NCBI GenBank assembly: GCA_046563655.1
Contig: CM102285.1
Location: 7,688,001 to 7,752,000, forward strand
Length of the DNA stretch: 64,000 bases
Source of the DNA: Yuukianura sp. NJ FZ-2021
Taxonomy: Eukaryota
Direction of reading: 5' to 3'
Shown here: piece after piece, positions 1-63,394 of the stretch
Layout: every line of letters starts with the position of its first letter
Position numbering within the stretch: position 1 is the stretch's first letter
Notes under the pieces: model-generated
Database searches by the model: none
What the model was told of the DNA's origin: nothing
Seen by the model: the letters and a program-made list of their open reading frames with translations, nothing else
Made by a program: the position numbers and the translations under genes

Positions 1-180
1 AAAACAAATAAACAATGAAAATGAAACTTTGACAAAAATTTTGAAAACTAATTACTAGGAAATGGTGACAAGTGTCAAAAAATGAATTTAACTGAAAACT
101 ACGGTGCTGAAGGCACTTAATACGGGACTCTAGTCCCATCTAATCTATCACTAGACAAACTGAGCACACAAATCGTCGCT

Positions 181-831
181 TTAGGTTGTTTTGGCGTAAC
201 GAGGGTTACTTTTCTGGTTCGTTTTGAATTGGTTTCTGCGCGGGGCTTTGCAAGTCGACGCATAGTGACCGGGCTGACAGCAACGTAGGCAATGTAGCTC
301 CTTTTTAAGCGGAACTGGAGCGAATCTACGCGGAAACTGGCTCGTTTTGGATGGTTTCGCCGGAGGAGGAGGAGGAGGAGGTGGCAGATTTTGAATTGGC
401 GGTGGAGGAGGAGGCGGCGGAGGCAAATTCTGAGGAACCATTGGAGGTGGGGGAGGCGGCGGAGGAGCCGGTTGACACTGGACCGTGACTGTAATGTCCG
501 GGAGCCTTTCCTCTGGAGATTTAGGAGACGGAGACCTTGGTCGGCTCCAAAAATAAATGGAAGGCGGGAACTTCTCGCGCAGGACAGAATCGAGGTACAT
601 GAGTTTGGAAGTCGTGAGGCCTCTGCCAGTTTTATGCCAGGAGGTAGGAATGGCTTCAATAATCGCAGGATTCAAGTTACGCTTGGCATAATAAACGATT
701 TCAGAGTCTGTAGGCTTTCGCTGGAGAGCAGATTCTATTTTAGGGATCAAACGCTTCAGGAAATCAGTGACGATCTCTCCGTCCCACTGAGGAAAATCAA
801 GTTTAGGTCTGGCTGATCGCTGAGAAGACAT
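181..831 (-). CDS. ORF3 of the Gypsy element: Gag-like, proline-rich protein with a CCHC zinc knuckle (216 aa)
   Basis: ATG lies 30 nt after the pol stop. N-terminal LDFPQWDGEIVTDFLKRL resembles a capsid start. It has three poly-Pro tracts and a CX2CX4HX4C knuckle (CLRCCQPGHYASTC), with no signal peptide or TM segment. Confidence 0.75.
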   Translation of the reverse strand: MSSQRSARPKLDFPQWDGEIVTDFLKRLIPKIESALQRKPTDSEIVYYAKRNLNPAIIEAIPTSWHKTGRGLTTSKLMYLDSVLREKFPPSIYFWSRPRSPSPKSPEERLPDITVTVQCQPAPPPPPPPPMVPQNLPPPPPPPPPIQNLPPPPPPPPAKPSKTSQFPRRFAPVPLKKELHCLRCCQPGHYASTCKAPRRNQFKTNQKSNPRYAKTT

Positions 832-861
832 GCTAAACCAACAAAAGAACAGAACGAAAAA

Positions 862-3768
862 TTAAATGCCTGCTGTACGATTACGTAACTGGTAACTACT
901 TTGTACAGGTACTGGCTTGGTCTTAACGACTTTTGCATAGGTCATAGGCTCAGGTAATGGTTCTGAAGGGCGGGAAAAATATCTTTTCAAATTGACTATG
1001 TTATGTCTGCCTGCACTTTCCTCAGAACCAAACAACTTTAGGCCGTAAACTAATGGCGTAACCTTCTCCGAAATGACATAAGGGCCTTCCCACTTAAATG
1101 CAAACTTTTTCATGATTCCTTTAGCCTTGTCTGACTGTATGTGAGTGCGCAGAAGGACTAAATCACCAACCTCAAAGCTGTCTGACCTACGTTTTTGATT
1201 GTAGTACTTGGCCTGGGAAGCTTGCGACTTTTCTAAGTGTTCCCTGGCTAATCGATAGACTTTAGAGAGACGCTCTATCAGGGTCAATTGGTAGTCTGTC
1301 CACTCGGCAAATTCGTCGCTCTGAGAGTCGTCTAAGGCCAAATCAAAGGGAGTGGAAAGCTCACGACCGAAATTTAACATAGAGGGGCCAAAACCTGTCG
1401 AATCGCTGATCGCAGTACGCAAAGCCATGGCAACTTCTGGGAGATTCTCATCCCATTTGGAATGTTTACGTGCTACGTAGGCTCTAAGAATGGCAATGAC
1501 GTTCCGATTGACACGCTCGGTAATGTTCGCCTGAGGATGATAGGTCGAAATGAATTTTAGCTTAACCTGCCAAGTTTTGCAAAGTTTCTTAAACAACTCA
1601 GAAGTAAATTGAGAACCATTGTCACTAAGTAACGCTCTAGGCCTACCGAAACGACAAAATACTTCCTGCTCGAGCTTTTGAATAATCTGAGGAGTCGTAG
1701 CCTCTCTGAGGGGAAAAATCTCAACCCATTTCGTAAAATGATCTGTCACGACTAGCAAAAACGTATTTTGACGTTGAGTTTTCGTAAGGGGGCCTATCAA
1801 ATCAAGGGCTAACATATCCCATGGACCTCTAGTCTGGACACTTTGGAGCTCACCTACTGGTTTCGTAGTGGGATTTTTAGTCTTTTGACAAATGTCGCAG
1901 GACGTAACGAATTTGTAAATGTCCTCGTGCATACCAAACCAGAAGACTCGACGTAGTAATCGGTAAAGGGTCTTTCGGAAGCCCATGTGACCTGACTCGG
2001 GACGATCATGAAAATAACTTAGAACTTGGGAACGTAAAGAGGAAGGAATGAAAGGAAGTTTCACTGCGTACTTTCCTAATCGATAAAGGATTCCGTCGTG
2101 CACTACGAAATCTTTACCCATGTCAGTTAGAAGCGCTTGGACCTCTAAATCTTTACTTTGTTCCTGTTTGAGCTGATCTAAAGAAATTTGCCTTGTGAGT
2201 GCAAGAAAAATGGCGGGAGAAGAACTATTTAGTGGAAAATGTAAATTTTCGCGATGAACTTCTGCATCCTCACTTTCTCCTACTGGGGCTCTAGACAAGG
2301 CGTCTGCTACAACGTTAAGTTTCCCTGGACAATGAGTAATAATGGGCTGAAAATCCTGAATTCTAAGGGCCCAACGGGTAAACTTACTATTGACATCTTT
2401 CATCTTGTCTAACCAAACTAGGGCCTTATTGTCTGTCTCGAGGCGAAATCTCTGACCGTCAATGTAATGTTCGAATTTCTTAAGGGCAAACAAAATACCT
2501 ACACACTCGATTTCACTGGAACCGTAGTTCTTTTCTGCGTTATTTAGGGAACGACTGGCAAAAGCTATTGGTCTCTCAAAACCATTGATTTCCTGGGCAA
2601 GGACTGCAGAAACACCAACCTTGGACGCGTCCGTCCGGATGATGAACTCTTTTGAAAAATCGGGAAAAGCCAAAACTAAATTATCGGAACAAATCGCTGC
2701 TCTGAGCTTTAAAAATGCGGACTCCTGCGCATCTGACCAATCAAAGGGAACATCCTTATGTAACAATCTGTTAAGGGGCTCACTAACCTCCGAAAACTTG
2801 TCGACAAACTGCCGATACCAGGAGCAAAGTCCTAAAAACTGACGAACTTGTTTAGGCGTCGTTGGCCTGGGGAACTCAGAAACTGCCGAAACTTTCTCCG
2901 GATCTCGCTCAATTCCGTTAGGAGAAATGATGTAACCTAAGTACTTTAATGTAGTTTTGCCAAACTCACATTTATCCTTATTTACAGTAAGACCTGCAGA
3001 TTGTAAACGTTCGAAAACGTACTTTAAGTGCTCTAAGTGCTCTGTCCAAGAGTTTGAGTATACAATGATATCGTCAATGTATCCATCAGCAAAGCGACCT
3101 CTCGCTGTGCCCAGAACTTTATTCACAAGCCTTTGGAAAAGAGAAGGGGCTGACTTTAAACCAAAGGGCATTCGAGTAAACTGAAATTTCCCTTCATGAC
3201 AAATAAAAGCAGTATATTTGGCACTATTTTCATCTAAAGCTACTTGCCAATAGCCTTTCTTTAAATCAATGACAGAAAGAAACTTAGCTTGTCCTAAGTT
3301 ATGGAAAAGATAATCTAACCTAGGAATGGGGAATGGATCGTGAGGAAGCCGCGCGTTAACTTTTCTCAAGTCCAGGGTAAATCTCCAAGATTCACCTTTG
3401 TCTTTGGTGTGCATATATACAGGGGAAGCCCATTCAGATTCGGAGGGAACAATGACTCCTAACTTTAGCATTTCAGAAATGTTGTCAGCAATCAATTGTC
3501 TTTTAAAGGGACTAACGGGATAGGGCTTGGAAGCAATTGGGGGTCCAGGAGACGGTGTCAACTCACACTTAACCCAATCAGTCAGGCCTAACTGAGAAGA
3601 GAAAAGTGAAGGAAAACTATCGGTAAGGGTCTTTAATTCCTGAGACTGTACGTCACTGAGGCCAAGAAGTGCGCGCAAGTACTCGCGATTGTGAAAATCG
3701 TATTCCAATCTACCTTTAGTTTTTGTCCCGTTAATGGAAAAAGTACCGTCATGAAAGTCTGGAACCAA
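862..3768 (-). CDS. pol: Pol: reverse transcriptase, RNase H and integrase
   Basis: RT motifs WASPV, IDLKKGYWQ, RMPFGL, YIDD. RNase H motifs TDAS, PIAFASR, ETDNKAL, ADALSR. Integrase zinc finger H..GH..CDIC, DDE core (LDLIGP, SDNGSQF, ITERVN) and GPY/F motif KWEGPY. Confidence 0.97.
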   Translation of the reverse strand: MVPDFHDGTFSINGTKTKGRLEYDFHNREYLRALLGLSDVQSQELKTLTDSFPSLFSSQLGLTDWVKCELTPSPGPPIASKPYPVSPFKRQLIADNISEMLKLGVIVPSESEWASPVYMHTKDKGESWRFTLDLRKVNARLPHDPFPIPRLDYLFHNLGQAKFLSVIDLKKGYWQVALDENSAKYTAFICHEGKFQFTRMPFGLKSAPSLFQRLVNKVLGTARGRFADGYIDDIIVYSNSWTEHLEHLKYVFERLQSAGLTVNKDKCEFGKTTLKYLGYIISPNGIERDPEKVSAVSEFPRPTTPKQVRQFLGLCSWYRQFVDKFSEVSEPLNRLLHKDVPFDWSDAQESAFLKLRAAICSDNLVLAFPDFSKEFIIRTDASKVGVSAVLAQEINGFERPIAFASRSLNNAEKNYGSSEIECVGILFALKKFEHYIDGQRFRLETDNKALVWLDKMKDVNSKFTRWALRIQDFQPIITHCPGKLNVVADALSRAPVGESEDAEVHRENLHFPLNSSSPAIFLALTRQISLDQLKQEQSKDLEVQALLTDMGKDFVVHDGILYRLGKYAVKLPFIPSSLRSQVLSYFHDRPESGHMGFRKTLYRLLRRVFWFGMHEDIYKFVTSCDICQKTKNPTTKPVGELQSVQTRGPWDMLALDLIGPLTKTQRQNTFLLVVTDHFTKWVEIFPLREATTPQIIQKLEQEVFCRFGRPRALLSDNGSQFTSELFKKLCKTWQVKLKFISTYHPQANITERVNRNVIAILRAYVARKHSKWDENLPEVAMALRTAISDSTGFGPSMLNFGRELSTPFDLALDDSQSDEFAEWTDYQLTLIERLSKVYRLAREHLEKSQASQAKYYNQKRRSDSFEVGDLVLLRTHIQSDKAKGIMKKFAFKWEGPYVISEKVTPLVYGLKLFGSEESAGRHNIVNLKRYFSRPSEPLPEPMTYAKVVKTKPVPVQSSYQLRNRTAGI

Positions 3769-4110
3769 ATGATAGTTCCTGATGAAGTCAAGTCCGAGAA
3801 TTAATGGGAAAGGAGGAGACTGGAGTACGTGTACTCTTTAAATATACTCGTCGCTGTAAATTTTGAATTTTAAATCAGCTGAACCTAAAGTACTGATCGT
3901 ACTAGAGTCACCAATCGTTAATGTTACTTTACAATCCTTAGTAACAACCAATCCCAGCTTATTTGCTAAGGAAAGGGAAATGTGGGAGTAAGTGGAGAGA
4001 GAATCTAGGTGGGCCGAATGCACCGAATTCCGAATTCGTACCATTATGGTGGGAGCTGCTTTAGAAAAGTTTAATTGTGGAAGGATAGGGGGCTCCCGTC
4101 CTACCTTCCT
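3769..4110 (-). pseudogene. Retroviral-type aspartic protease region, in frame with pol but interrupted by an in-frame TAA at 3838-3840
   Basis: Active-site-like AHLDSLSTYSHI (DSL instead of D[ST]G). Reading past the stop gives RVHVLQSPPFPLILGLDFIRNYH, the typical protease C-terminal motif, which runs directly into the pol ORF. Confidence 0.8.
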
Positions 4111-4739
4111 TGGGGGTTTGGATCCCTGGGAACTTGATGGGGAAGGGTGTAAACTACGACTTCTATTCCCCTCATGCATAATTCAGACCAAATAATGTGG
4201 GAAATAATGTTCCATCGTCCTCTGGAAAGACCTACTCCAATTCTGGGCATGTGAACAACTGAATTTGTGTCTAAGGCTCGTTTGGCTACAGTTTGTAAAG
4301 CTACACGAAGAGCATCGTAGTCAATTGGGACTGGCTCGTTGGGATGTCCTTGGGCTATCATGTTGGCAACCTCTATGTCTTTGGCTACTTGGACAAACTG
4401 TACATGACCTCTCTGAATTGGGGCTCGTAATTTTCTGTACTCCATTTCTGGAGCACGAAATGCCTTGGAAAGCGAAGTGACAAAACCTTTTCCCCAAAAA
4501 CCCTGATCGTTACAAATGTGTGCCAAGATACAACGTTGATTCTTTAAAATGGGCTGAGTTGCATCGCCAGTAACATGATGAATTTGACCTTTCTGGGGAG
4601 GATTAGGAGTACTGGAAGTTAAAGGAACGAAAACTGGAGAATCAAACAATGACGGAAGAGCGACCTTCTCCTGCGAGTCACTCCTCCTTAAACTTTTGGG
4701 TAACCGCCCTGATTTGTTTTCCCTCGCTTTTTGGGACAT
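4101..4739 (-). CDS. Macrodomain of the TARG1(OARD1)/DarG/SCO6735 (Poa1p/ALC1-like) class, predicted ADP-ribosylhydrolase; core about 4143-4583
   Basis: Class motifs present in order: IHHVTGDAT, ILAHICNDQGFWGKGFV, VQFVQV, VANMIAQ, IDYDAL, VHMPRIGVGLSRGRW, GIEVVVY. Confidence 0.9.
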   Translation of the reverse strand: MSQKARENKSGRLPKSLRRSDSQEKVALPSLFDSPVFVPLTSSTPNPPQKGQIHHVTGDATQPILKNQRCILAHICNDQGFWGKGFVTSLSKAFRAPEMEYRKLRAPIQRGHVQFVQVAKDIEVANMIAQGHPNEPVPIDYDALRVALQTVAKRALDTNSVVHMPRIGVGLSRGRWNIISHIIWSELCMRGIEVVVYTLPHQVPRDPNPQGR

Positions 4740-5929
4740 TGTGGAGCGTAGTGACCCTTCTGGTTACAGTAGAAGCACGTGACCTGATCGATTGACCATT
4801 CTCTAGAGGGTGGAGGTTGACCTGAACTACCCTGTCTACTCTCATTTCCTGGTGGTGGACGACCTTTACCATAATTGTTAGGCTGAACTGAACCTGACGC
4901 AGCTGGAGGACGCTGTGCATTGGAACTAGAAGATCCTGAATCGTTAGAGGCCCTAGGCTGATACCTTGCAGACGTTCTCTCTTTAAGTCTTTGGTTGTAC
5001 TCAGAAAAATCATCGGAAGTTTTCGCTCGAAGGAGGGGCTTATTCTCAAATCGCCTAGTCCTATTCAAGTCTCCTATAATCTCTTTACCATGTGAAATGA
5101 GCTCTGCTATCCCAGTAGCTTGCGAAGATCTAAGCAAAAGAGAGATTTCTGGGATACACGAATTGATGATTCTGTCCCTAATCGTTTCTGTGGAAACCTG
5201 AGGATCGATTCTCCTGTAGGAATTTGAAATATCCCATGCAAAAGTTTCAAAAGATTCAGCAAAAAATTGTTTTCGAGAAAATAATTCAGCAAGAAGTTTG
5301 TCTTTGGATTGTCCAACTCCTTCATAATTTTGAAAAACCACTTTAAAATCTTCCCAGGGTGTGATACTGTCCTTCGTATCCAACCACCATCGAAAAGTGT
5401 CAGAATCTTTATGGAACATTCGACTAATTAGGACCAATTTTCCTTCTTCAGTTAGATTTTTAAGTGCAAAATAATCTTCAGCGTCTTTAAAAAAAGCTTG
5501 AATTGGCATACGCTGCGAATATTTAGGAATAGGAATCACCGCTGCTTGTTCCACTAATAAAACTTGGGGCGCGTTAGGTGGTGTGATAGCTAGTGCGGGT
5601 GCGGTACTGGGTTGGGGTGCGGCAACCACTGGCGCGGGCGTTAATTGTTGTGCTTGCATGGCAGCTAATTGTGCTTGTAAAGTTTGTAATTGTTGACGTA
5701 GGTCAGCAATTACAACGTCTTTAGAATCCGGGGGGTCCATAATTGCGAGTGAATCTGAATATTCCTCCTCTGAATCTGATTTGTTTTCGGGAATGACTGG
5801 GGAAATCGAAATGATAGACGGGGGTGCGCTTCTCGCCCGCTCCGGTTCAGCAGGGACAAGTAGTCCTGTGTGGGAAGCCTCTGCTTGAGACTTTTGTAAT
5901 TCCCGACTCGCGCTGCGGGTAATTACCAT
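4688..5929 (-). CDS. gag: Gag (coiled coil, Arc/retrotransposon-type capsid, CCHC knuckle)
   Basis: First ATG at 5929 (MVITRS). Capsid motifs FRWWLDTKDSITPWEDFKVVF and RKQFFAESFETF. Knuckle CFYCNQKGHYAPQC. Confidence 0.92.
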   Translation of the reverse strand: MVITRSASRELQKSQAEASHTGLLVPAEPERARSAPPSIISISPVIPENKSDSEEEYSDSLAIMDPPDSKDVVIADLRQQLQTLQAQLAAMQAQQLTPAPVVAAPQPSTAPALAITPPNAPQVLLVEQAAVIPIPKYSQRMPIQAFFKDAEDYFALKNLTEEGKLVLISRMFHKDSDTFRWWLDTKDSITPWEDFKVVFQNYEGVGQSKDKLLAELFSRKQFFAESFETFAWDISNSYRRIDPQVSTETIRDRIINSCIPEISLLLRSSQATGIAELISHGKEIIGDLNRTRRFENKPLLRAKTSDDFSEYNQRLKERTSARYQPRASNDSGSSSSNAQRPPAASGSVQPNNYGKGRPPPGNESRQGSSGQPPPSREWSIDQVTCFYCNQKGHYAPQCPKKRGKTNQGGYPKV

Positions 5930-6309
5930 GAATAACACGAAAAACAACAAAAACTGAAATTTAGAAATGAATTTTAAATGATTTGTTTAGATTTACGCGG
6001 CATAATTTGTAAAAAGTTTCGAATTTAGACTTTAGAAAGAATTTGCAATGTGAAAATCCGAATTGTTAATTCGGGGTGCGGGACCGCGCTCGACTTGAAA
6101 ATGTTAAGCAGAGCGGTGCACTCCGCACTGCTGTGCAAAACCGTACCGTATCGCCGTTATGCTTATATAGCATGCAGAGCCATGCTTTCAACCGAATGAA
6201 CACCGAAATGTACCGAATTCGTCGGTATTATGTCATGAATCGGTGATTAATCCATGATTAATCATCGATTAACGTTATGGGAGAGCTAAAGGGGGCGGTT
6301 CAACGCTAC

Positions 6310-6320
6310 TTTCGGCACCA
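6310..6320 (-). promoter_or_regulatory. Primer-binding site complementary to the 3' end of tRNA-Phe
   Basis: TGGTGCCGAAA lies 4 nt inside the LTR end; eukaryotic tRNA-Phe ends ...UUUCGGCACCA. Confidence 0.8.
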
Positions 6321-6324
6321 GATA

Positions 6325-6933
6325 TGAGGGCTACGGGTAAGGATGCCTTGGACCTTGCCCGTGCTCTCAAATAAACAAAAGAAAAACCGAAAACCGAAAC
6401 GACGATATGTGGGCTACGAATTTATTCGTAGCTCATGACCTTAACACTACAATGGCCCACTAGGGCAAAAACAATGGGCCTGAAGGGCCTATAACCGAAC
6501 CAATGGAGGAAGGGAGGGAAGGAAGCGGGTAACAGGTTAATACCTGGCCTATGACCACTAACTGGTCAGTGACCACTAACTGGTCATGACCACTAACTGG
6601 TCAGGGCCACTAACTGGCCTCAAGAGGACGTAGAGCGTCCATTTGACCTTACGGTGACCCTTGGGCTGGCAGAAGGAGATGACGAGGACAGGCACGGCGT
6701 GGCAGGAGGATCTGCTGCTGCTGCTGACTGCATGAGAGCTGGAATCCGAGTGAGTGCTCGTGCAGCTCGTGCTTCTGCTTCTGCTCTTCTTCTTTTTTGA
6801 ATTCGGGGAAGCGGGAAGCGGGGAAACACTTATGGGCATTGCCCTAACTTATATTTTTAACTCTTTTTAACTATTTTGTTTTTAACTTAGCTTATATTTT
6901 TAATTAGTTGTTTAATTGAGGATCATATCCTCA
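6325..6933 (-). repeat. 5' LTR (609 bp) of the macrodomain Gypsy element
   Basis: Termini TGAGG...CCTCA form a perfect 5-bp inverted repeat. The PBS is adjacent, AATAAA is at 6421-6426 (minus), and there is an abrupt switch to a G-rich host repeat at 6934. Confidence 0.8.
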
Positions 6934-7345
6934 CACCAGGGAGAGTGGGGGTGAGTTCCCCCACTTCTCAGCCCATCCCTCCGGCGAAGAGGGGGTGTGT
7001 TCCCCCACTTTTTTCCTCCGCACCCCAGGAGCGTTGGGGTGGGTTCCCCCACTTTTTCGCTCCGCACCCCAGATGGAGGGTTCCCCTACTTTCCCACGCT
7101 CATTCCCCGGAGAAGCGTGAGTGTGTTCCCCGGGGGAAAGGTGGTGAGTTCCCAGGAGGGAGAGAGGGTGGGTTCCCCGGGGAAGAGAGGGTGGGCTCCC
7201 CGGGGGAAGAGGGTGTGGGTTCCCCGGAAGAGAGGGGGTGTGTTCCCCGGGAAAGAGAGAGTGGGTTCTCCGGGGGAAAGGCGTGGGTTCCCCCGGCGTG
7301 TGGGGAAGGTTTCTCCGGGGGTGTGAGGGTGGGTCACCCGGGGCC
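6934..7345. repeat. G-rich minisatellite (GGGTTCCCC/GGGGAAGAGAG units)
   Basis: About 23-nt G/C-run units; same family as 7785-8192 and, inverted, 15955-16262. Confidence 0.85.
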
Positions 7346-7389
7346 ATGGTGCGGTCCTCAACGCTTCCCAGCTATCAGGACGTTAATAT

Positions 7390-7658
7390 GAAAAAAAAAG
7401 TTGACCTTTGACCCGGAGGCAGGTTACTTGGGGTCATTTGATATAAACAAAAGTTGTTGGTCTCCACGAGATGAACAACTTTTGTAGAGGTCGTTTTCCG
7501 GGTTACCGGGGGATGAAACTGGTTGACCTTGACCTTTGACATGGAAGCAGTTGCCCCACGGGGGTCATATTCAATAGTGCACAGGTCCGGGTCATGACAT
7601 GGTGACTGGTGAAAACCCGGTTGGAATCGGTCCAGTAGTTTCTGAGATCCATGCGCTG

Positions 7659-7690
<32 letters not shown>

Positions 7691-7695
7691 TGAAT
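7390..7695. mobile_element. Fragment of a Helitron/DINE-like interspersed repeat
   Basis: TGACCTTTGACC motifs, AATCGGTCCAGTAGTTTCTGAG and a (CAGA)n tail; homologous to 8250-8570 and other copies in the window. Confidence 0.6.
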
Positions 7696-7784
7696 CAGAT
7701 CGGTTGTAAACCGCGCATAACGAAATAGCTCAAGACAAAAGACAGTTGGTCACTTACGCTTTTCTCCGTAATCCTCAGCTTCTC

Positions 7785-8192
7785 CCCCCATGTGGAAGTG
7801 GGGGATGTGTGTTCCCCCCGCCTTTTTGCTCCGCACCCCAGGAGGCGTAGGGTGGATTCCCCCCACTTTTCCGCCCCACCCCCGGGGGAGTGGGGGTGGG
7901 TTCCCCCCACTTTTCGGCCGCCCCCGGGGAGTGGGGGTGGGTTCCCCCCATTTTTCCGCCCCCCCCCCCGGGGAGAGTGGGGGTGGGTTTCCCCCACTTT
8001 TCCGCCCCCCCCCCCCGGGGAGAGTGGGGGTGGGTTCCCCACACTTTTCCGCCCCCCCCCGCAAGGGAGTGGGGGTGGGTCCCCCCTTTTCCGCCCCCCC
8101 CCCCCGGGGGGAGTGGGGGTGGGTTCCCCCCACGTTTCCGCCCCCCCCCCCCCGGGTTGAGTAGAGTGGGTTCCCCCCCACTTCCCCCACCT
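7785..8192. repeat. G/C-rich minisatellite (about 40-45 bp unit, GGGAGTGGGGGTGGGTTCCCCCCACTTTTCCGCCCC)
   Basis: About 8 tandem degenerate units. Confidence 0.9.
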
Positions 8193-8249
8193 GGGATGCC
8201 TGCATTATGAGAGAATGGGCAAGGTAGCAGGCTTGCCTTGCCCATCTAC

Positions 8250-8535
8250 ACTGTATGTTAATACGTTGACCTATAATCGCGGTTTTGACCCCCTTGGAGG
8301 GGTCAGAGACCCATGGTTCATATACCAAAGTTGTTCCCCTCAATGAGAGGAACAACTTTTGTTAGGGTCATTTTCCCGGTTTTATATTCAAAAGGTCAAT
8401 GACCTTGACCTTTGACCCGGTAAAAGGTCACCTATCCGGATGATATGATAAAATTGAACTGGTATACACCATGACATATCAATCGATGAAAACCCGGATG
8501 AAATTGGTCCAGTAGTTTCTGAGTTATTGAGGCTC

Positions 8536-8566
<31 letters not shown>

Positions 8567-8570
8567 TGAA
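8250..8570. mobile_element. Second fragment of the same Helitron/DINE-like repeat
   Basis: GGTCCAGTAGTTTCTGAG plus (CAGA)n and TGACCTTGACC motifs. Confidence 0.6.
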
Positions 8571-8720
8571 GCGACTTTCGTAGTAATTCGTTTCGGTGTA
8601 GTTCGATTTCGAAGTAAAGTACTTTCGTAGTAAATCGACTTTCGTAGTAATTCGTTTCGACGAAATTCATTCGTCGAAATGCGCTTCGTAGTAAATGATT
8701 CGGCGAAATGGCATGGAACC
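8571..8720. repeat. About 20-bp periodic array (TTTCGTAGTAA core)
   Basis: Repeated TTCGTAGTAA/TTCGAAGTAA at roughly 20-nt spacing, ending in GGAACC. Confidence 0.7.
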
Positions 8721-9369
8721 ACTGCGATTGGACATCTTCTGTTCACCGTCATTGTGGTTGAAGTTTTGTTTTATTACTTCCATAGAGCCCTTCACTACCC
8801 GCTAATTTACAAATGAATTCACAAAAAGCATCACACTTGGGTATCACCCGTTGCAATCGCCGCCATCTACTGTCATCCTATAGAACAAGTCCTGTCCAAC
8901 ATCATTCCAGTCGTGGCGGGTGAATTTGAAATCAAATTAGTCGTCGCTTTTTCTGAAAACCTTCTTCATTTTTTCAAAATTGTTTAGGTTTCAAAATTCA
9001 ATTTTTTTGCTGTATTTTTTGCTTTAGGTCCTTTTATCCTAGGCACGCACGTTGTTATTCTTTGGGCCTGGATTGCAGTTTCCATTGTAACGACGCTTAT
9101 CACCCACAGTGGCTACCATCTTCCGTTTCTCGTTTCAGCTGAATTGTTTGTATGACTTCCATCACCTAAAGTATACATTGATTTTGATACCTTCTTTGTA
9201 AAGTTTAAAATTGATTTCGTTTGACACTAGGTTTAACTACAACTTTGGTGTGATTGGCCTTTTGGATAGACTTCATGGCACGAATGTTTTGTTCAAAAAA
9301 TCTAAAGAATCTGTTCGTCATCGAACGCTTTGGACACTCCAGTCAGCCAAAGAACTGTACCCTAACTGA
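8721..9369 (+). pseudogene. FAXDC2: FAXDC2-like fatty-acid hydroxylase/sterol desaturase pseudogene (5'-truncated, three exons: 8721-8919, 9028-9170, 9231-9369)
   Basis: Translates to EVLFYYFHRALH, IHKKHH, YCHPIE, THSGYHLPF, DFHHLK|FNYNFG..LDRLHGT. In-frame TGA at 8814-8816 and a frameshift near 9145-9155. GT-AG introns. Not in the ORF track. Confidence 0.85.
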
Positions 9370-11309
9370 ACTTGCGCTTTTAACTTCACAAATTACTTTT
9401 AAAATCGTAACTTTAAGGTAGTTTTTATTAACTAACTAAACTAATGCAACCAAAAACGTAATTTGCAATTCCGATTGTTCAAACACTATTTTCTGAAGGC
9501 TGAAAACATCTTCAAGATTAAACCCATCGCACGTAAAAAATACTGGGTTCTGGGTCAAAGTATGGGGGACTTCCGTCGGACGCCTCGTTTTTAATTTTTA
9601 TTAACATTATTGCTGGTTATTAGAAGCCATGCTTGCGAAGTACCCTTCAGCGGACAAAGTCCAAAAATCCCAAAATTTTAGCGCGAAATTTCTTTCAGAA
9701 ACTTTGGAAAAAACTGATGACGTTCCAGCTAGCGGCAAAAGTGCCCTAACGACCAAAACCGATTTTTGAAAAGTAAACAACGAAAAAAAAAGTCACCAAG
9801 AATGGCGTGGACGCACTGCTTATAAAATTTCCAGATTTTGAAAAAAAAATAGTTAAGCTATTCGTACATTCCCGGGTTCGGATTCGCCTGAAGGAGCTCA
9901 GCATCAGTGCTAAGAGCAAATATAATTTTAAAAAAGCTAACCACTTTATAAGAGCAGCACCAAAACAACAATAGCCTAATAAGATTACCAATTTTTGGTA
10001 TGAAATAAAATTATTTTCAAAGATTTGGTCTAAGAATTTTAAAATAAGAAGCCTATCTGATGAATGGTATGCAGCATGGTATGTATGTAGGTATGTAGCA
10101 TGATAACGTACATACGCACAGAACTTTTTTTAATATTTATTTAGTTTTTTGAACTCAAAGCATACGTCAATTCAGGCCAAATAAATTTCAAAAACAGTTT
10201 CGTATTTCAAAAATTTTGAAATTTTGTAATTTAAAAAAAATTCATGCCAGATCCGAGACTGGCGTCTGCTCTAAGCTTTTATGGAAAAAGGAAGAAGTTG
10301 TGGCTGAAGAGCACTCGACACCGACAGTTCAACTTTCGGCAAACGAATTCCCAGAGACGCTGAAAGAGGAGACCGCGTGAGTCCGCATGTTAATGTTAAC
10401 TTATGTTAACTGTGGAGTGGCTGACTTCTCACCTTTCATTAACCGTTGAACTTTCAGTTATGAGAATGCCACGTCATTATGCCATGGGCGTAGAGAAAGT
10501 GGAGAAGATGACTCGGATCTTATTTAGTTAGAGTTGGCACGGCGAGTGGTGAAAGACTTGTGGGGTCTTCGACCGAGCTACTATTTCATAAATCGTGAGG
10601 AAATTGCAATTTTGCAAGACCAAGAGGAGCAGATGAAGGAAGCAGCATAAAAATCGTCTTCGAATTTAAATTTTGCGCCAATTTAGTGTGCTAATTTATT
10701 CCAAAAATTTTGGCTTTGTCGAAAAAAGTTTGTGACAAAATAGGCGTAAAAGCTTTGCTTTTGTTTGGATTTATGTTGAACAATTTGGATTCAGAATAAA
10801 GCTATAGCTATTTTTTAAAAATTTAGGAAGTTTGAAAATGAAACTCAAATTAAGTTGTGCATGACATGGGTTTTGAAATTTTGGAACTTAAAGCAATAAA
10901 TTGTGAAAAGTCAAGACATTTTGGAAGAATACTTTTTATAGTTCATTTTTTTACTGTGCAGTTGTGTGCAATTCCAAAAAATTTCCTTTTCTGCTGAACT
11001 GTTAGGTTTCGGCATTTTGGAAATAAGTTACTCCGAAAACGGATTCGTATTTTGGAAGTTAGACGAACTTTGCGACGTTCAATCAACCTATCACGTTTTC
11101 AGGGGTGACGCTGCGCTGGAGGAATTAATATCAACAACTCGAAGTAAAAAGCTGAACTCTAAATTAGAATAATTTAGAGTTCAGCTTTTTACTAATTTAG
11201 AGTTCATCATGCATGTAACGCCTTAATTTGTTAACAGCTCCCCCACCGAGCCCATTCAAACCTTTGGTCTTCTATGCCGGGCTCAAACTGAACCGATGGC
11301 AAATGTATG

Positions 11310-12300
11310 GGAGGAAATTTCACGCCGCGCGTTATACGCGCTAAATGCGCGAATATTGGCGAAAATGCGAAATCGTTGCTCGTACGTGGTCTGAGTGGCA
11401 ACGATACGACTCCGACGCCATTCTGGTTCGTGAAATTTTGCGCCGCGATATCTGCGACGTGAATTTATTGTATAATATATTATATAATTTTAGCTTATAA
11501 ATTTAATTAGAATAAATATTATCAACATAATTAACATATTGAATAAATAAATTTATAAATTAGAATTAAAAATATAAATTAAACTAAATTTATACATAAT
11601 TAAATATATTTAACATGTAATACAATTCGTTGTATTTCGGTGTATTATATTTCTTTATTATATTACTATATTTATTATACTACTTATTATATTATATTAT
11701 TATTATATTATTATATTATAATATTATATTATATATTATATTATTATACTATAATATTATATTATATATTATATTATTATATATTACATATATTATTATA
11801 TTATTGGTTTATTATATTATATATAGAATACGTTTGGACAACGATTTCGCATTTTCGCTCATATTCGCGAATTTCGCGATTCGCGGCGTGAAATTTTGCG
11901 TGCAAACCAAGATGGCGTCAGAGGGTGATCGTTGTCACCCACATGATGTTTACCCAGCGATTTTTCCCCTATCGCAAAATTGAAACGTCGCGCCATTCGC
12001 GAATGTCGCGCCGTGAAATTTCGCGTTCGAACCAAGATGGCGTCAGAGGGTGATCGTTGTCACCCGCATGACGTTTACCCAGCGGTTTTTTTCTTATCGC
12101 AAAATTGAAACCTCGCGCCATTCGCGGATGTCGCGCCGTGAAATTTCGCGTGCGAACCAAGATGGCGTCAGAGGGTGATCGTTGTCACCCACATGACGTT
12201 TACCCAGCGATTTTTCCCTTATCGCGAAATTGAAACCTCGCGCCATTCGCGCATGTCGCGCCGTGAAATTTCGCGTGCGAACCAAAATGGCGTCAGAGGG
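11310..12300. repeat. Composite repeat: CpG-rich inverted arms around an AT-only core, followed by about 3.3 copies of a 125-bp tandem unit
   Basis: About 11315-11388 is the reverse complement of about 11830-11897. 11460-11825 is almost pure A/T. Tandem units start at about 11884, 12009, 12134 and 12259. Confidence 0.85.
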
Positions 12301-12711
12301 AAATGCCTACTCAACCTCGGAAAACTTAGGTTTTGTCTTAGTTTTTTATTTATAGAAAAAAGGTCAACGTAACAGGTCAAAAACTTTTTTTTTCGCATTG
12401 TGAACAGCCAATTATAGATAAGCAGCGAAAAAATCCGTTTTCGAAATTTGAAATTTCATAATTGGAAATTTTTTGAAAAGGATAACCCCCGACTCCATCT
12501 GAGGAGCACAGATGTGTTAAGTTAAGTTGTGTTTAAAATGCTCAACCATGAGCTTTCGTACAAAACAAAACGACTATAAATACTTTCGAAAATTCTTCAT
12601 AGGTGTTTAATAGAGTGCAGACTACAAACATTTTATAGTTTACTAATTATCAAAAGACTAACTTTTTGTGGAGCTTCAATGTTAGTACTGCAAACATTGC
12701 CTAACTTAATC

Positions 12712-13734
12712 ATGAAATCCGGACTAATCCTGCTGGCGACGTTGACCTTGTCACTTTCTCCCGCTGGCGCTAGCCGTCTAACTGACCAGGTTGACGGAAC
12801 TACTTCCACAAACAAAGGACCACTTGATCCCAAAGTTCCCGTGAAGTTTGGAGAGCATCTAGGATCCGACAACCATTTTTACATGTACTTTGCAGGAGCA
12901 GCATACTGCGAAGACAACGCCTCCTTGAGCCAACTCAACTGTCCATGGTGTCGTCCCGTCATAAAGAGAGGGTACAAGTACCACTCTACAATCCGAAATT
13001 ATGCGAGCAATACTTTAGCACTGGTTTCTGTCAGCCGCGTGAGGAGTACTGTCGTCGTCGCTATTCGCGGGAGTTCCAATGTCCGGGGCGTTCTGGAAGA
13101 TTCAAATGAAAATAAAGTTAGAATTGGGAATACTGCAATAATGGTTCATACTGGATTCGATAAAGCAACGGTAAGTATCTTCCCCAAAATTGTCAACACT
13201 TTGAACAACGTGACACACGGTCATTTCAACACGAAGATCGTCATAACTGGGCACGGTGTGGGCGGGGCCATTGCAAGCTTAACAGCATTCTATCTCATTT
13301 ACACCAGGATTTTGATATACCGTAATACAAATGTTCAACTCTACACTTACGGTGCACCTCGAGTCGGCAACAAAGCTTGGGCCACCCAAATGAACAGCTT
13401 TCCGAATCTCATTATCCGAACGGTGAACTACGATGACGTTGTTCCGCATTCCATTACTGCTGTACAGGACTACTGGCACTATCAATCGGAATACTGGATC
13501 ACTAACACCAGCACATTTGAAGGAAAGTACTGCAATGAATCTGTGTATGAAGATCCGAATTGTTCCAATAGTTTGGCATCTAACTACAGTCTGCTGAATC
13601 ATTTGACATACTACAAGGTCAATATCCACCAATGTGCTGCCTACAATCCAATACCTTTTGTGACCCAAATGATAACTAGCCTAAAACAAGTACTTCTCGT
13701 GTCTGGTGGTGGAACCTTCGTACTCCAATCTTGA
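12712..13734 (+). CDS. Secreted class-3 (fungal-type) lipase-like protein, intronless, with the nucleophile Ser replaced by Gly
   Basis: Signal peptide MKSGLILLATLTLSLSPAGA (alternative start at 12679). Motifs AGAAYC, VVAIRGS, VHTGF, ITGHGVGGA (canonical GHSLGG), YTYGAPRVGN, DDVVPH, EDPNCSNS, HLTYY. TATAAATA at 12575. Confidence 0.9.
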   Translation: MKSGLILLATLTLSLSPAGASRLTDQVDGTTSTNKGPLDPKVPVKFGEHLGSDNHFYMYFAGAAYCEDNASLSQLNCPWCRPVIKRGYKYHSTIRNYASNTLALVSVSRVRSTVVVAIRGSSNVRGVLEDSNENKVRIGNTAIMVHTGFDKATVSIFPKIVNTLNNVTHGHFNTKIVITGHGVGGAIASLTAFYLIYTRILIYRNTNVQLYTYGAPRVGNKAWATQMNSFPNLIIRTVNYDDVVPHSITAVQDYWHYQSEYWITNTSTFEGKYCNESVYEDPNCSNSLASNYSLLNHLTYYKVNIHQCAAYNPIPFVTQMITSLKQVLLVSGGGTFVLQS

Positions 13735-15268: not shown

Positions 15269-16310
15269 AAGTAGCTTTAGCTACTTTATAAAAGCGTTTT
15301 CGTCCGTCATCGCGTTTTCCGTCCTAGACCCATAAGGAAAGCCTGTCCGTCATCGCCTTTTCCGTCCTAGCATAGGGCTCACCATTTAAGAAGTAGTGAA
15401 AATGTGAGGGAAATTATCTCGGAAACTACTGGATCGATTTTGCTCCAGTTTTATCTAGTGACTATCTCATGACCCGGACTAGGTCACTATTGAATATTAT
15501 CCCGGTGTGTCAACTCCTTCCGGGTCAAAATCGATTTCAAAAGTCACGTGAATTTATGCATTGAGGAAGTGCTGGTAAAAAAAACGCTGCTTGTGAGACT
15601 GGAAAGGCAATTGGCATGGGAGTTGGTTCTCTGCTTAGCAAAAAATCTATTACGCAGTTGACTAACACACTCAACTGTCAACTGTCACACTTCATCTGTC
15701 ACTTCATCTGTCACGTGCCGGGTGTCACGTGTCACGCGCCGGATGTCACCTGTCATACCGGTGACATCCGGCGCGTGATGCACATACTCATGCACTGTGT
15801 CCAGTGTCCATTCGTTCCATCCGTTTCTTCTGCTGTTGCGTCGTCCGTATCCCACCTCGACATCTGTCACTTGTCACACCTCGTCACCTGTCACACTTCA
15901 TCTGTCACCTGTCACATTTCACCCGTCACATGTCACGCGTCACCCGTCACGCGGGAAGGTGGGGGAAGCACCCACCCCCTATCTCCCGGGACACCCACCC
16001 CCTTTCCCCCGGGGCACTCACCCCCTCTCCCCCGGGGCACTCACCCCCTCTCCCCCGGGGCACCCACCCCCTTTCCCCCGGGGCACCCACCCCCTCCCCC
16101 CCGGGGCACCCACCCCCGCGCTCCCTGGGGTGCGGAGCGAAAAATTGGGGGGAACACCCCCACTCCCCCCGGAGGGCGGGAAAGTGGCGTAACACACCCC
16201 CGCGTTCCCTGGGGTGCGGAGCGAAAAAGTGGGGGAACATACCCCCACTCCCCCTGGGGGCTGATTAAGTCCTGTTTGTTTAAAAAAACACCTAAACGCT
16301 AAAGCTACTT
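15269..16310. mobile_element. DINE-1/Helentron-associated (HINE)-like non-autonomous element containing a TGTCAC array and a C-rich minisatellite
   Basis: Terminal hairpin AAGTAGC-TTTA-GCTACTT; its first 13 nt recur inverted at 16298-16310. TCCGTC motifs near the left end, TGTCAC array at 15675-15950, C-rich array at 15955-16262. Confidence 0.65.
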
Positions 16311-51568: not shown

Positions 51569-54500
51569 TTAAATTTTGTAAGTTCCTGGGGGTGGACGTT
51601 CCCGCTTTGGATATCGTGGTGGGACTGGGGTCAGCGGTGGTTCTGGTTGAGGAACCGGTTTCTCTGCTGTGTCCATCGGCTCTGCCACGACTTCCTCTTT
51701 CCCTTCTTGTTCATCCTCCTCCATGATGTCCTGTGTTGGTCCATGCAGCAACTGATCAGCATGACGCTTGATTTCTTGTCCATTGACATCAACGATGAAC
51801 GTCACTGGTCCAATTTGTCTCCGGATGATTCCAGTTGACCATTTGGGTTCATTTTTAGAAAATGTTTTGACCCAAATGCGTTGTCCAATATGAAACTCTC
51901 GTTCTCGAGTCTTCTTGTCATAATTGGATGATTGTTTGAATTGTGAATATCCAACTTTTGCTCGAACATCTGGTCGCAGAAGATCCAGGAGTGTTCTCAA
52001 TTTCCTTCCTTGCAAAAGTTCGGCTGGAGACTGTCCAGTGGTAGCATGAGGTGTTACTCTGTAGGTGAACAGAAAACGTTGGAGTGCAAGGCTGCGATCT
52101 CCTTCAGCAGCTTTCATTGACTTTTTGAAAGTTTGAATGAACCGCTCTGCTTCGCCATTTGACCTTGGGTGATAAACGGAGCTTGTTGTGTGACGAATAC
52201 CATTCGAGTCACAAAATGATTTGAATTCCTGGGATGTAAACTGTCTTCCGTTGTCAGAAACAATTTGATCCACCAATCCGAATCTGCATATTGATTCTCG
52301 GATTTTTGAAATGACAGCAAAACTGGTTGCGTTGTTATTCAAATCAAAGACTTCCGGCCATTTTGAATGTGCATCTGTGATGATGAGCCACATCTTGTTT
52401 AAGAATGGTCCAGCCAGGTCAATATGGATACGTTGCCAAGGGCGTTCTGGAAACTCCCATGGATGTAGAGGTGCACTAGGTGGGTTTCCTCTGTTCTGCA
52501 CACATTTTGTGCAACTTTTACACATCGATTCGATTTCTTCGTCAATCCCTGGCCACCAGACGTACTGTCGTGCCAGTGATTTCATTCTCACAATTCCAGA
52601 GTGAGAGTCATGCAGTTCCATTAAAATTTTCTTCTGGAGAGCGGCTGGAATTACTACTCGAATTCCCCACAGGATGATATCCTGAACCAATGTCAATTCT
52701 TCTCGTCGGAGAAAGAATGGGTACAAAGGGTCCGTCTTTTGCATTTTAACCGGCCATCCACTAGAGACATGGCGATAGACTGTAGAAAGTAGTCCGTCTC
52801 TGGAAGTGACATTTTTAATTGCTCTGGCTGTGACTGGAAGAACTTCTAAAGTCGAACAGGCCACGAGGTTAACTTCGGATTCTAGTTCCGGTTCAACTTC
52901 CGGTATGCCATCTGTCGGTGTCGGATGTCGGGAGAGTGCGTCTGCATTTCCATGATCTGCGGTCCGTCTGTACTGCATGGAGAAAGTGAATTGGCTAAGG
53001 AAGAGACTCCACTTTTGTAATCTTGTCGCAGTGAAAGATGGAACTTGTGCTTTAGCTCCAAAAAGTGAAAGTAGTGGCTGATGATCAGTGACCACTGTAA
53101 ATTCTCTTCCGCAAAGAAACTGGAAAAATTTCTTTACTCCAAAGACGATCGCAAGTGCTTCCTTCTCGATCTGGGAATAACGCTGCTCTGCTGGTGAAAG
53201 TACTTTAGATGCAAAAGCTATTGGTCGCTCTGAATTGTCCAGGAACCGATGAAATAACACTGCTCCGAGTCCCTTCTGAGATGCATCACAACTGATTCCA
53301 ATGGGAAGTTCTGGAGAGTGATGACAGAGGATCGGGGCAGAAGAAAGTGACTTTTTAATCCCGTCAAAGGCGATTTGACACTTGTTTGTCCATTTGAAAT
53401 CGACATCTTTTCTCGTGAGAGCGTACAGCTCAGCACATTTGTCTGCGAGGTTTGGTATGAACTTTCCATAAAAGTTGACTAATCCTAAGAAGGATTTAAC
53501 CTCGGTCACCGTCTGTGGGCGTTGAATGGCATGAACTGCTTTCACCTTGCCTGGTGATGTGGTGAGTCCATCCTTTGAAATCACAAATCCAATGTACTCA
53601 AGTGACTTTTGTAGAAAAAGGCATTTGGATTTTGATAGACGGTAATTTGTTTCGCGCATGCGCTGGAAAATTTTCTGCAAAGTGGCTAGGTGCTCTGCGT
53701 CCGTGATGCCAGTGCAGATGGAGTCGTCCATGAATGATCCAGCCATCGGAATGCCCTTCAGAAGCTTGTCCATAAACTCCTGAAAAATTGCTGGAGAGGA
53801 GGCGATGCCCTGGGGCAGAACTTTGTAACGGTAAAGTCCTCGGTGCGTGTTGATCACCATAAATGATTTGCTCGACTCGTCCAGTTCAATCTGATGGAAG
53901 GCGTCGGGGCCATCCAGTCTTGAAAACGAAAATCCTCCAGAGACCGTTGACATCAGCTCGTCCACCCTCTGCAAGGGATACTGGGTTATGTTCAACTGTG
54001 AATTGACAGTGTGTTTGAAGTCACCAGTGATTCGGACTCTGCCATTTGCCTTGGGCACTACGACCAGGGGTGAGGCCCATTCTGAGTGTTCAATCCTTTG
54101 AATAACTCCAGACTGTTCCATTTGATCCAACTCGGCATCGACTTTGGAACGAAGTGCAAATGGTATGGGGCGTGCCTTCAGAAACTTTGGAACGGCATCG
54201 TCCTTGAGGATTACTTTGGCCTTGAACCCTGTAATTGATCCACGAGGTGGTGAGAATACGTCCTTGTATTCGTCCAAGAGTTCGTCTAAGGTCAACTTCT
54301 GCGATGACGCAGGAATTCTGTGACACTGCGCAGGCGCGGCGAGCGTCAAGTTCAATCCGAACAGGCGGATTAAATCTCTTCCAAACAGAGATTGGCTTCC
54401 TTTTGTAACTGAAAAGGAGTAGTTCACTGACTGTCCATTGTAACCAAGGGTTACGTCCAATTTCCCCAGGGGGCGAAATCGTTGGTTAGTGAAAGTTCGA

Positions 54501-55564: not shown

Positions 55565-55786
55565 GGCGCTTGGTGCTGCGTAGCTTGGTACTGCAGGACT
55601 CGGTACTGCGGGTGCCTGACGGCGTGGAGTGAAAGGACTGTTGGTAGCAATTGTGTCTCGTACGGTACGAACACCGTCTCTAATTTCTGCAAGTGGAGTT
55701 GAGTGTCTTGAATCGGCGCTGATGACCTCTTCCTCAAAAGCGTTCGGATCCAGACTCGAAAAGCAACGCTGGGTTGGTTTTGTACT

Positions 55787-55796
55787 CTCGTCGCCA
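55787..55796 (-). promoter_or_regulatory. Primer-binding site TGGCGACGAG (matches the 3' end of tRNA-Ser(GCU))
   Basis: Lies 5 nt inside the 5' LTR; complementary to ...CUCGUCGCCA. Confidence 0.75.
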
Positions 55797-55801
55797 GAAA
55801 A

Positions 55802-56070
55802 TGTTGTGTATGTGGTTAAGTTTATTCAGTTGTTAAATGGATTGTGATGTCGAGATGGTTTTACATTGGTCTTTTTATACTAACGAAAGTGAAAGGGAGA
55901 AGGAGGAAATTGCATGATTATGCAATGTTGCTTAACCTAACAATGGTTGGGGGTGACTGACCCTATTTCTTGACACCATTACGTAAGGTTGCATGAGAAT
56001 GCGTACCTTGGTTAAGTATGTCAGATCAAACGAGTTTGTTTGCATCTGAGAGATTATGTAATACATTACA
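55802..56070 (-). repeat. 5' LTR (269 bp)
   Basis: Paired with 51178-51447; TATAAAAAG (55871-55879) and AATAAA (55821-55826) on the minus strand. Confidence 0.95.
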
Positions 56071-61532: not shown

Positions 61533-61741
61533 AAGTATTGGAATTTTTCATAAAAAAATTCGAAAAGTTCTTTTCAAAACAACTTGTCACAAGAAAAAAC
61601 GTTTTTTGAAAATATTTTAAAATAGCATTCAACCATTGTTTCGATGGCTACTTAAACAGTGAACTCTGAATCTAGAAATCGTCAGTTCTGAACTTAGTAG
61701 TGGAAATTACAACATTCCTACTCCATAGCCATTCTCAAAAG

Positions 61742-62446: not shown

Positions 62447-62834
62447 AGTTTATTTCGAGAATGTCGTTTTGAAGTCGATGAACTTTTAACCCTTTTTCTA
62501 TAATTTGGAAAAGGATCGTTTCTGATGAAAATCGTTTCGAGTTGTTCGTTTAATCCTTTTTTCCAAGGAAATTTAAGTCGTTGGAATTGCTAAAAATAGA
62601 AAAAAGGGTCGTTTCTGTTGAAAAACGTTTCGAGTCGTTCGTTTAATCCTTTTTTCCAAAGAAATTTTAGTCGGAACGTTTGGAACGTTTCCTTTTTTCT
62701 ATAATTTGAAAAAAGGGTCAAACTTCTACCTGAAAATTTGAGATAAAAAGGCCGTTCGACTGCTCAACAAACCATCAGTCTCATCACAGCTTCAGTCGGA
62801 ACTTCTTCTCAAAAACTACTCCTCAAACACTACA

Positions 62835-63257: not shown

Positions 63258-63394
63258 GCCCTTTTAGAAATATTTAAAAAATTTTACAAACTTTGTTAGT
63301 TTTAAGAATTGTAAAATAAAATTTTTGACTCAAACCGAAAAAGTATTTAAACGCTCGTCCTTCATTCTAAACGTTTAGTCTAAATCTAGCAGCC

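Follow-up and report, generated by a model that had tools for sequence, protein, structure and literature searches.

The window analysed here, a 64,000-nucleotide (nt) stretch of contig CM102285.1 of Yuukianura sp. NJ FZ-2021 (GenBank assembly GCA_046563655.1, positions 7,688,001 to 7,752,000 of the forward strand), carries near its beginning one copy of a Ty3/Gypsy long terminal repeat (LTR) retrotransposon, all parts of which lie on the minus strand (Table 1). In addition to domains in the Gag (CCHC)-protease (PR)-reverse transcriptase (RT)-RNase H (RH)-integrase (IN) order of Ty3/Gypsy elements (Metaviridae), this copy contains a short open frame, situated between the zinc knuckle of Gag and the protease, that encodes a complete macrodomain of the SCO6735/BT1257 subgroup of the ALC1-like class. 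A sequence-only reading of this DNA had placed the domain at this point and listed its motifs; the position is borne out by the frame coordinates together with Pfam, and every one of the motifs is present in the 220-codon frame. The same reading had made the domain part of the Gag-Pol polyprotein, which is right as far as position goes; the macro frame is, however, offset by -1 from gag, and the protease-pol frame by a further -1 from the macro frame, so that with the coding regions thus separated a common polyprotein could arise only through two -1 ribosomal shifts.

Table 1. Parts of the macrodomain-bearing Ty3/Gypsy element, with positions in the window.
Feature	Position	Strand	Details
Upstream untranslated region, probably including the 5' LTR	5930..6877	-	outer boundary near 6877
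gag coding region	4688..5929	-	ATG at 5929, TAA at 4690-4688; stop-to-stop frame 4688-5986 = 432 amino acids (aa)
CCHC zinc knuckle (nucleocapsid part of Gag)	4730..4780	-	PF00098 (zf-CCHC), E 5.6e-5; residues 403-419 of the 432-aa frame
Slippery heptamer C_CCA_AAA in gag frame, proposed first -1 site	4694..4700	-	in-frame X_XXY_YYZ
Spacer, 6 nt, contains gag stop	4688-4693	-	
12-bp stem-loop	4654..4687	-	4687-4676 paired with 4665-4654; begins 6 nt after the heptamer
Macro open frame	4101..4763	-	220 codons + TAG at 4103-4101; -1 from gag
Macrodomain proper, SCO6735/BT1257 type, ALC1-like class	4143..4586	-	residues 60-207 of the macro frame
Proposed second -1 site U_CCA_AAC in macro frame, non-canonical	4116..4122	-	
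Second stem-loop	4079..4109	-	4109-4100 paired with 4089-4079; begins 6 nt after the site; macro stop in 5' arm
Protease part, third frame	3838-4182	-	114-codon stop-to-stop frame
Aspartic protease domain	3742..4041	-	RVP_2 match with the stop read as X; TAA at 3838-3840 interrupts
pol frame	862..3837	-	991 codons; RVT_1 7e-36, RT_RNaseH 3e-33, Integrase_H2C2 1e-19, rve 4e-14 (Pfam)
pol domains	RT about 2926-3405, RNase H about 2350-2739, integrase about 1534-2049	-	Pfam

Compared with all chain sequences of the Protein Data Bank (PDB), the macro frame matched 14 distinct sequences at E<=1, led by SCO6735 of Streptomyces coelicolor (5e3b, 2.2e-30) and BT1257 of Bacteroides thetaiotaomicron (2afc and 2fg1, ~3e-30 to 6e-30) and followed at much weaker values by ALC1/CHD1L (2.5e-7), TARG1 (4.8e-3) and Poa1p (0.4); the likeness to SCO6735 named in the sequence-only reading is thus far beyond chance. 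Identity to the two bacterial proteins amounts to 41-43%. An AlphaFold2 model of residues 56-212 of the macro frame, built from a 64-row alignment, has a pLDDT of 95.8, and the macrodomain fold, a mixed alpha/beta sandwich, is recovered by Foldseek in the same order of relatives: 2fg1 (TM 0.91), 2afc and 5e3b (TM 0.83/0.88) are succeeded by ALC1, TARG1 and DarG, the latter two at E 1e-10 to 1e-9 (TM 0.75-0.78, identity 22-25%), while the macrodomains of RNA viruses reach a TM of ~0.70 at 14-19% identity. PHROGs assigns the domain to phrog_335 (3e-20), PADLOC returns a weak match to DarG (E 6.5e-4), and its matches in the ESM Atlas are bacterial and phage macro clusters only. Neither Pfam nor NCBIfam has a family that matches it, even at E<=1, and because these collections miss the domain similar elements are probably present but unannotated in genome projects.

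The residues known to matter for SCO6735 are retained. Passages of PMC9411070 on that enzyme report that Gln85 to Ala and Asn27 to Ser abolish activity or nearly so, that Gly128 to Glu lowers it, that His24 is needed structurally, and that the backbone of Val25, which is Ile in some homologues, positions the proposed catalytic water. Aligned to 5e3b, the window protein matches His24, Val25 (as Ile), Asn27, Lys34, Gln85, Gly126 and Gly128, and it has both the His of AHxCND and the Gln of NMIxQ that had been picked out from the letters alone; in a 12-row alignment the Asn, the Gln and both Gly are invariant and the His is nearly so. SCO6735 and BT1257 resemble the window domain in these Gln, Asn, His and Gly residues and have no catalytic Lys or Asp, whereas in human TARG1/OARD1 and in DarG, which belong to the same fold class, a catalytic Lys (TARG1 Lys84, paired with Asp125; DarG Lys80) occupies the position that is Gln here, within the NMIAQ motif. 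Judged by its active-site residues, the domain is most likely a mono-ADP-ribosylhydrolase of the SCO6735 type, which would work through the Gln/Asn/backbone-water mechanism of that enzyme and not through the Lys-Asp dyad of TARG1. It differs from SCO6735 and BT1257, which stand alone, in being encoded by a frame inside a eukaryotic retrotransposon and in two clade-specific deletions: a shorter, Lys-free mobile loop and a second deletion after EYRK are common to all eight eukaryote/element rows of the alignment.

Because three frames in a single copy could reflect decay in a dead copy, relatives of the element were sought. An exhaustive, profile-free protein search returned 3428 proteins at E<=1e-3, and in P0140 (568 aa) Gag and the macrodomain share one frame: the N-terminal 390 residues are a Gag homologue with a CCHC knuckle (39% identity over 359 aa, E 8e-70), and residues 401-556 form a macrodomain 54% identical to that of the window. 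A metagenome scan for relatives of the macrodomain gave, among the best 80 of 522, two short contigs, L058 (60% identity over residues 20-206) and L059 (46% identity), both laid out with the end of gag and its CCHC in frame f, the macrodomain in f-1 and a peptide resembling the protease leader (..LP...FSKA.PTI..) in f-2. The gag-linked arrangement therefore recurs in L058, L059 and P0140. A word-index search for longer proteins with the macro frame yielded 5 matches among 838 candidates, all of them prokaryote-like fusions (methylase, NADAR, endonuclease-type) and none a retroelement, which is weak evidence; with Gag, none of 8000 candidates was scored, low-complexity words having probably crowded out true relatives.

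Comparison of the window element with L058 and L059 brings out a common organization at the gag/macro junction. A canonical in-frame heptamer lies within the last four gag codons in 3/3 elements, set against a background of 3 such heptamers in 433 gag codons; it reads C_CCA_AAA in the window and in L058 and G_GGA_AAA in L059, in the same column and frame, so that the letters changed from CCCAAAA to GGGAAAA between elements with the X_XXY_YYZ pattern retained. Next come, in all three, a spacer of 6 nt, inside the 5-9 nt range of programmed -1 signals, that includes the gag stop, and a 12-bp stem, which RNAalifold predicts independently and in which 33 of 36 cells are paired over the three elements, as opposed to 47-64% after a shift of the 3' arm by 1-3 columns; three pairs have changed on both sides (compensatory). 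The macro frame of L058 has no Met ahead of the domain, which makes separate initiation of this frame unlikely. On these sequence comparisons a first -1 frameshift signal is well supported, and the predicted transframe sequence after the shift is ...GGYPK/SLRRSDSQEK...

At the macro/protease junction the aligned sites are U_CCA_AAC in the window, G_GAA_AAA in L058 and G_GAA_AAC in L059, each succeeded by a 6-nt spacer and a conserved stem starting GGAAGG. Over the three elements 27 of 30 cells of this stem are paired (one pair compensatory), RNAalifold recovers 9/10 of its pairs, and past the macro stop, where conservation continues, the only coding frame is the -1 frame (..FSKA.PTI..). A second -1 frameshift is probable from this pattern, less securely than the first. 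In beta- and deltaretroviruses gag, pro and pol occupy three overlapping frames joined by two -1 shifts, and the betaretroviral middle frame carries a dUTPase after the nucleocapsid; the window element, with its two predicted -1 shifts and an accessory enzyme right after the nucleocapsid, is like them in both respects, but its middle frame encodes the macrodomain only, its protease lies in the third frame with pol, and it belongs to Ty3/Gypsy. To our knowledge, the layout of gag, accessory and pro-pol frames connected by a double frameshift is otherwise known only from these two groups of retroviruses.

The element is neither unique to this locus nor evolving as expected of a relic. Five public sequencing runs, from 2 studies and 2 organisms, contain parts of it, and four of these were compared with the window at a likeness of 80% or more. 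Contigs of graded similarity, many per run, cover every bin of positions 1-7000 in 4/4 runs, and over the macro region each of the four also has a nearly identical contig, with 1-6 letters different in 254-462 nt; the element is thus multi-copy, and the macro region is not private to the window copy. Together with the recurrence in L058, L059 and P0140, this disposes of the concern, raised with the sequence-only reading, that the domain might be a one-off insertion. A further concern of that reading, neutral evolution, is answered by the macro frames of the window and L058, between which nonsynonymous divergence (dN) is 0.34 and synonymous divergence (dS) ~4, a saturated value that puts the ratio at about 0.08 at most; dS is not computable for more distant pairs, and a dN so far below dS points to purifying selection and makes a neutral relic unlikely. 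Contig depth over 3979-4680 seems to be below that of the flanks in 3/4 runs, a measure that cannot rank parts of the element and from which nothing is inferred.

As to where the domain came from, a FastTree phylogeny of 209 rows (10 eukaryote/element macrodomains, 142 cluster representatives and 57 IMG/VR viral loci) unites the 10 eukaryote/element sequences in one clade with local support 92, and they again form one clade (SH-aLRT 90) in a quick IQ-TREE run of 73 rows, for which 49 of the 142 representatives and 14 of the 57 viral rows were taken by rank and at random and the long-branched L052 was dropped. This clade is nested among bacterial and phage rows, on a backbone without resolution, and the gag-linked sequences (window, L058, L059, P0142 and P0140) group loosely inside it. 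Among prokaryotic genomes identity goes no higher than 50%, and the best matches come from many phyla, with no single donor lineage standing out; SCO6735-type macrodomains at 30-46% identity also occur on the 57 IMG/VR viral contigs (L001-L057), many of them 100-500 kb long, and by this count of sequence matches large phages or other large viruses often encode the type. These data are most simply read as one acquisition from a source resembling prokaryotes or phages, and the horizontal transfer that had been suggested earlier is favoured, by the PDB E-values and by the trees, over capture of a host TARG1 or ALC1.

Three further sequences touch on the distribution of such domains. Metagenome contig L060 carries two tandem stand-alone macrodomain genes (229-801 and 866-1420; 86% identical, dN/dS 0.36), with no gag on the contig and no in-frame start upstream of the genes; they are probably spliced eukaryotic genes, in which the element's domain was domesticated or from which it came. 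A weak G-patch match (E 0.0096) and a Cys/His-rich tail come after the macrodomain of P0145; betaretroviruses likewise have a G-patch behind their protease. A brittle-star transcript, whose best Swiss-Prot match is given in a passage of PMC7217437 as the archaeal macrodomain protein MA_1614, offers a lead to transcribed prokaryote-type macrodomains in an echinoderm.

The whole is best explained, with a probability that we put at roughly 0.55, by an element that packages a captured ADP-ribosylhydrolase of the SCO6735-BT1257 type, made by frameshifting, with which it counters host marks; frameshifting, packaging, catalysis and the counter-defence role are all steps that we infer. An ancestor of the family would have taken up a bacterial or phage macrodomain of this type as a short frame between gag and protease-pol. 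Ribosomes translating gag would be held up by the stem-loop that begins 6 nt past C_CCA_AAA, slip by -1 on this heptamer and produce a fusion of Gag, nucleocapsid (NC) and macrodomain terminating with the macro frame; shortly ahead of the stop of this frame, another -1 slip at a less canonical site would lead, in smaller amounts, to Gag-Macro-PR-RT-RH-IN, so that three products are predicted (Gag, Gag-NC-Macro and Gag-NC-Macro-PR-RT-RH-IN). The macrodomain would be built into particles in small amounts beside the nucleocapsid, probably to be freed by the protease, and could there strip the ADP-ribose put by host transferases on proteins of the element and perhaps on its nucleic-acid intermediates; the adjoining nucleocapsid could provide a grip on nucleic acid, leaving room for an activity on cDNA or RNA. 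SIRT6 reportedly ribosylates KAP1 and in this way keeps LINE-1 repressed. When PARP-1 is lost in Drosophila, the elements that become derepressed belong mostly to the gypsy superfamily, according to a passage of PMC7712786, and it is plausible that host ADP-ribosylation bears on elements such as this one.

Several observations weigh against this explanation. At the level of the element, linkage to Gag is seen in only three DNA contexts and one protein, no LTR pair was found within positions 1-12000 of the window, and the protease of the window copy is broken by an in-frame TAA (3838-3840), which, once read as X, is spanned by a match of 3640-4182 to the retroviral aspartic protease family RVP_2 (E 2.6e-4, 21.2 bits, cut-off 20.3); its active-site triplet moreover departs from the D-S/T-G consensus, and, with such a protease in its sequence, the window copy is probably not autonomous. 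One contig of run X3 joins 4109 to 4826 and so skips the CCHC knuckle and the whole macro frame; with 27 letters on its shorter side the joint is weak, and it may be an artefact or stem from a macro-less sister lineage. As regards the signals, a canonical in-frame heptamer is present at the second junction in 0/3 elements. Folded alone, neither stem is stabler than shuffled sequence (z -0.83 with 37/200 shuffles as good for the first; z -0.32 with 76/200 for the second), and covariation is weak with three sequences, shuffles matching the observed values in 31-136 of 500 and in 111-500 of 500, respectively. The clade supports of 90-92 are under the tools' star level of 95, and the clade members L060, P0143 and P0145 look stand-alone, so that transfer could have run from element to host gene or in reverse. 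Within the domain itself, the mobile loop is 3 residues shorter than that of SCO6735 and is without Lys89 and Lys94, and the retained Gln is no proof of catalysis, since homologues of ALC1 keep it too (PMC9411070).

A more far-reaching version of the proposal, in which an animal Ty3/Gypsy lineage acquired a bacterial or phage ADP-ribosylhydrolase that acts on DNA as well as protein and is delivered in particles, by frameshifting, as a fusion to the nucleocapsid, and in which hosts restrict retroelements by ADP-ribosylating their intermediates (capsid/enzyme proteins or single-stranded (ss) cDNA), with L060, P0143 and P0145 as host domestications or as the source, is put forward only tentatively, as clearly less probable than the explanation above. 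Doubtful, and more so than that version, is an eraser whose substrate is nucleic acid, removing ADP-ribose from thymidine, other bases or ends of the ss cDNA or RNA of the element in the manner of DarG, with the nucleocapsid as its grip. Reverse transcription exposes ssDNA, the domain comes directly after the CCHC nucleocapsid and a basic linker, and the weak PADLOC match is to DarG (E 6.5e-4). SCO6735 itself takes thymidine-linked ADP-ribose off ssDNA and rescues cells from DarT, and passages of the same source state that TARG1 erases Glu/Asp-linked ADP-ribose and that TARG1 and DarG erase the thymidine-linked form (PMC9411070). The mobile loop speaks against such a substrate, as loss of Lys89, in the long loop of SCO6735, lowers activity on DNA and leaves activity on protein unaffected (PMC9411070). 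A shortened loop without the two lysines accordingly favours protein substrates and argues against strong activity on DNA, and the protection of cDNA envisaged in the sequence-only reading loses ground. Nor do we know of a DarT-like transferase in animals; in the window, too, the arrangement is not that of DarTG, the macro frame having gag and protease-pol, and no darT, as neighbours.

Somewhat less likely again, and the main rival, is a domain that reads ADP-ribose in place of erasing it: ALC1-like binding of ADP-ribose or poly(ADP-ribose) would steer Gag complexes or the pre-integration complex to ADP-ribosylated chromatin, for example at DNA breaks, comparable to the guidance of chromoviruses by their chromodomains. 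The macrodomain of ALC1 is a reader, and targeting modules usually sit on integrase. Among solved structures ALC1/CHD1L ranks next behind the bacterial proteins (E 2.5e-7; Foldseek rank 4), its homologues share the Gln (PMC9411070), and capture of reader domains, namely chromodomains, by Gypsy elements is established, as a passage of 10.1101/2021.11.30.470311 attests. By E-value, however, the window domain is much nearer to SCO6735 and BT1257, which are active hydrolases (1e-30 versus 1e-7), all the residues whose mutation kills SCO6735 are conserved across its clade, and it lies beside the nucleocapsid and not on integrase. The chromoviruses, likewise a Ty3/Gypsy lineage with a captured domain, differ in the same way: their chromodomain is a reader of eukaryotic origin at the integrase C-terminus, whereas an enzyme type of prokaryote or phage affinity is found here between Gag and protease. 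Least probable by a wide margin is a passenger or decaying relic, picked up once and contributing nothing, with the frame differences as mutations in dead copies, which could draw on the broken protease, the unremarkable fold energies of the stems and, weakly, the contig joints that omit the region, but which is at odds with an open macro frame and the same two -1 offsets in three elements 46-61% identical in protein, a dN far below dS, a slip-site pattern kept despite the change of letters, and the invariance over 12 rows of the Asn, the Gln and both Gly, with the His nearly so.

RNA viruses that have to escape antiviral PARPs characteristically encode macrodomain erasers, which also typify the conflicts that bacteria and phages wage over ADP-ribosylation of DNA. 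The macrodomains of RNA viruses (coronavirus Mac1, alphavirus nsP3, hepatitis E virus) are described in a passage of PMC10499221 as countering antiviral PARPs; an eraser encoded by the window element would make it, like these viruses, a parasite with an ADP-ribose eraser in its polyprotein, but the viral domains are of a different class and lie inside the replicase, whereas that of the window lies beside Gag. The nearest precedent found, an animal reverse-transcribing element with a macro domain, is provided by the epsilon-like endogenous retroviruses in ray-finned fish that have macro-domain or CNPase frames as extras (PMC4977317); these belong to Retroviridae and, as described in that review, have the domain as an additional open reading frame. 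Searches of the full-text literature, with subscription journals, Repbase and GyDB outside the scope, yielded no account of an LTR retrotransposon, Ty3/Gypsy or other, that carries a macrodomain. Three ingredients are known singly, namely viral counter-defence by macrodomains, domain capture by Gypsy elements and frameshifting by -1 at two sites; their combination, with an eraser of bacterial class as the middle frame, appears to be new.

The presence of a macrodomain in a Gypsy family hints that hosts use ADP-ribosylation against such elements. If the eraser is what it seems, a conserved and selected enzyme of this kind, located in an LTR retrotransposon's structural polyprotein, would carry the ADP-ribosylation arms race over to retroelements; it would predict a host ADP-ribosylation defence against reverse-transcribing elements, testable with a small, well-behaved domain, and would furnish a clear natural example of a eukaryotic mobile element that has captured an enzyme of prokaryote type.

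Regarding the limits of the element, the contigs of 4/4 sequencing runs diverge into unlike sequence at 6877, so that its upstream end is probably near this position; the downstream end probably lies beyond the first base of the window, and no primer-binding site was located. A 226-aa open frame at 181-861 (-) follows the pol stop in the same frame as pol, has a proline-rich stretch, ends in a CCHC-like knuckle and is without a Pfam match; runs X2 and X3 contain one contig each that joins 143 to 892 and omits it, and the frame may be an insertion or a variant 3' region. G+C-rich tandem arrays, with units of about 23 and 44-47 nt (GGGTGGGTTCCCCCCACTTTT-like), are located at 6930-7300, 7800-8200 and about 15900-16300, thus flanking the macrodomain element and recurring 9 kb away.

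Elsewhere in the window, a second, unrelated Ty3/Gypsy element at 51569-55825 (-) encodes Gag-PR-RT-RH-IN in one uninterrupted 1418-aa frame; it shows 28% identity to the pol of the first and has no macrodomain. Rfam matched 0 families in the window, and three open frames of 171-256 aa at 61676-64000 (+), the last of which runs off the window, have no Pfam match. Apart from a weak V-set-like exon, there is also an intron-less class-3 lipase gene at 12679-13734 (+), with a signal-peptide-like start (Pfam 5e-26), whose look-alikes in the ESM Atlas are commonest in Nematoda.

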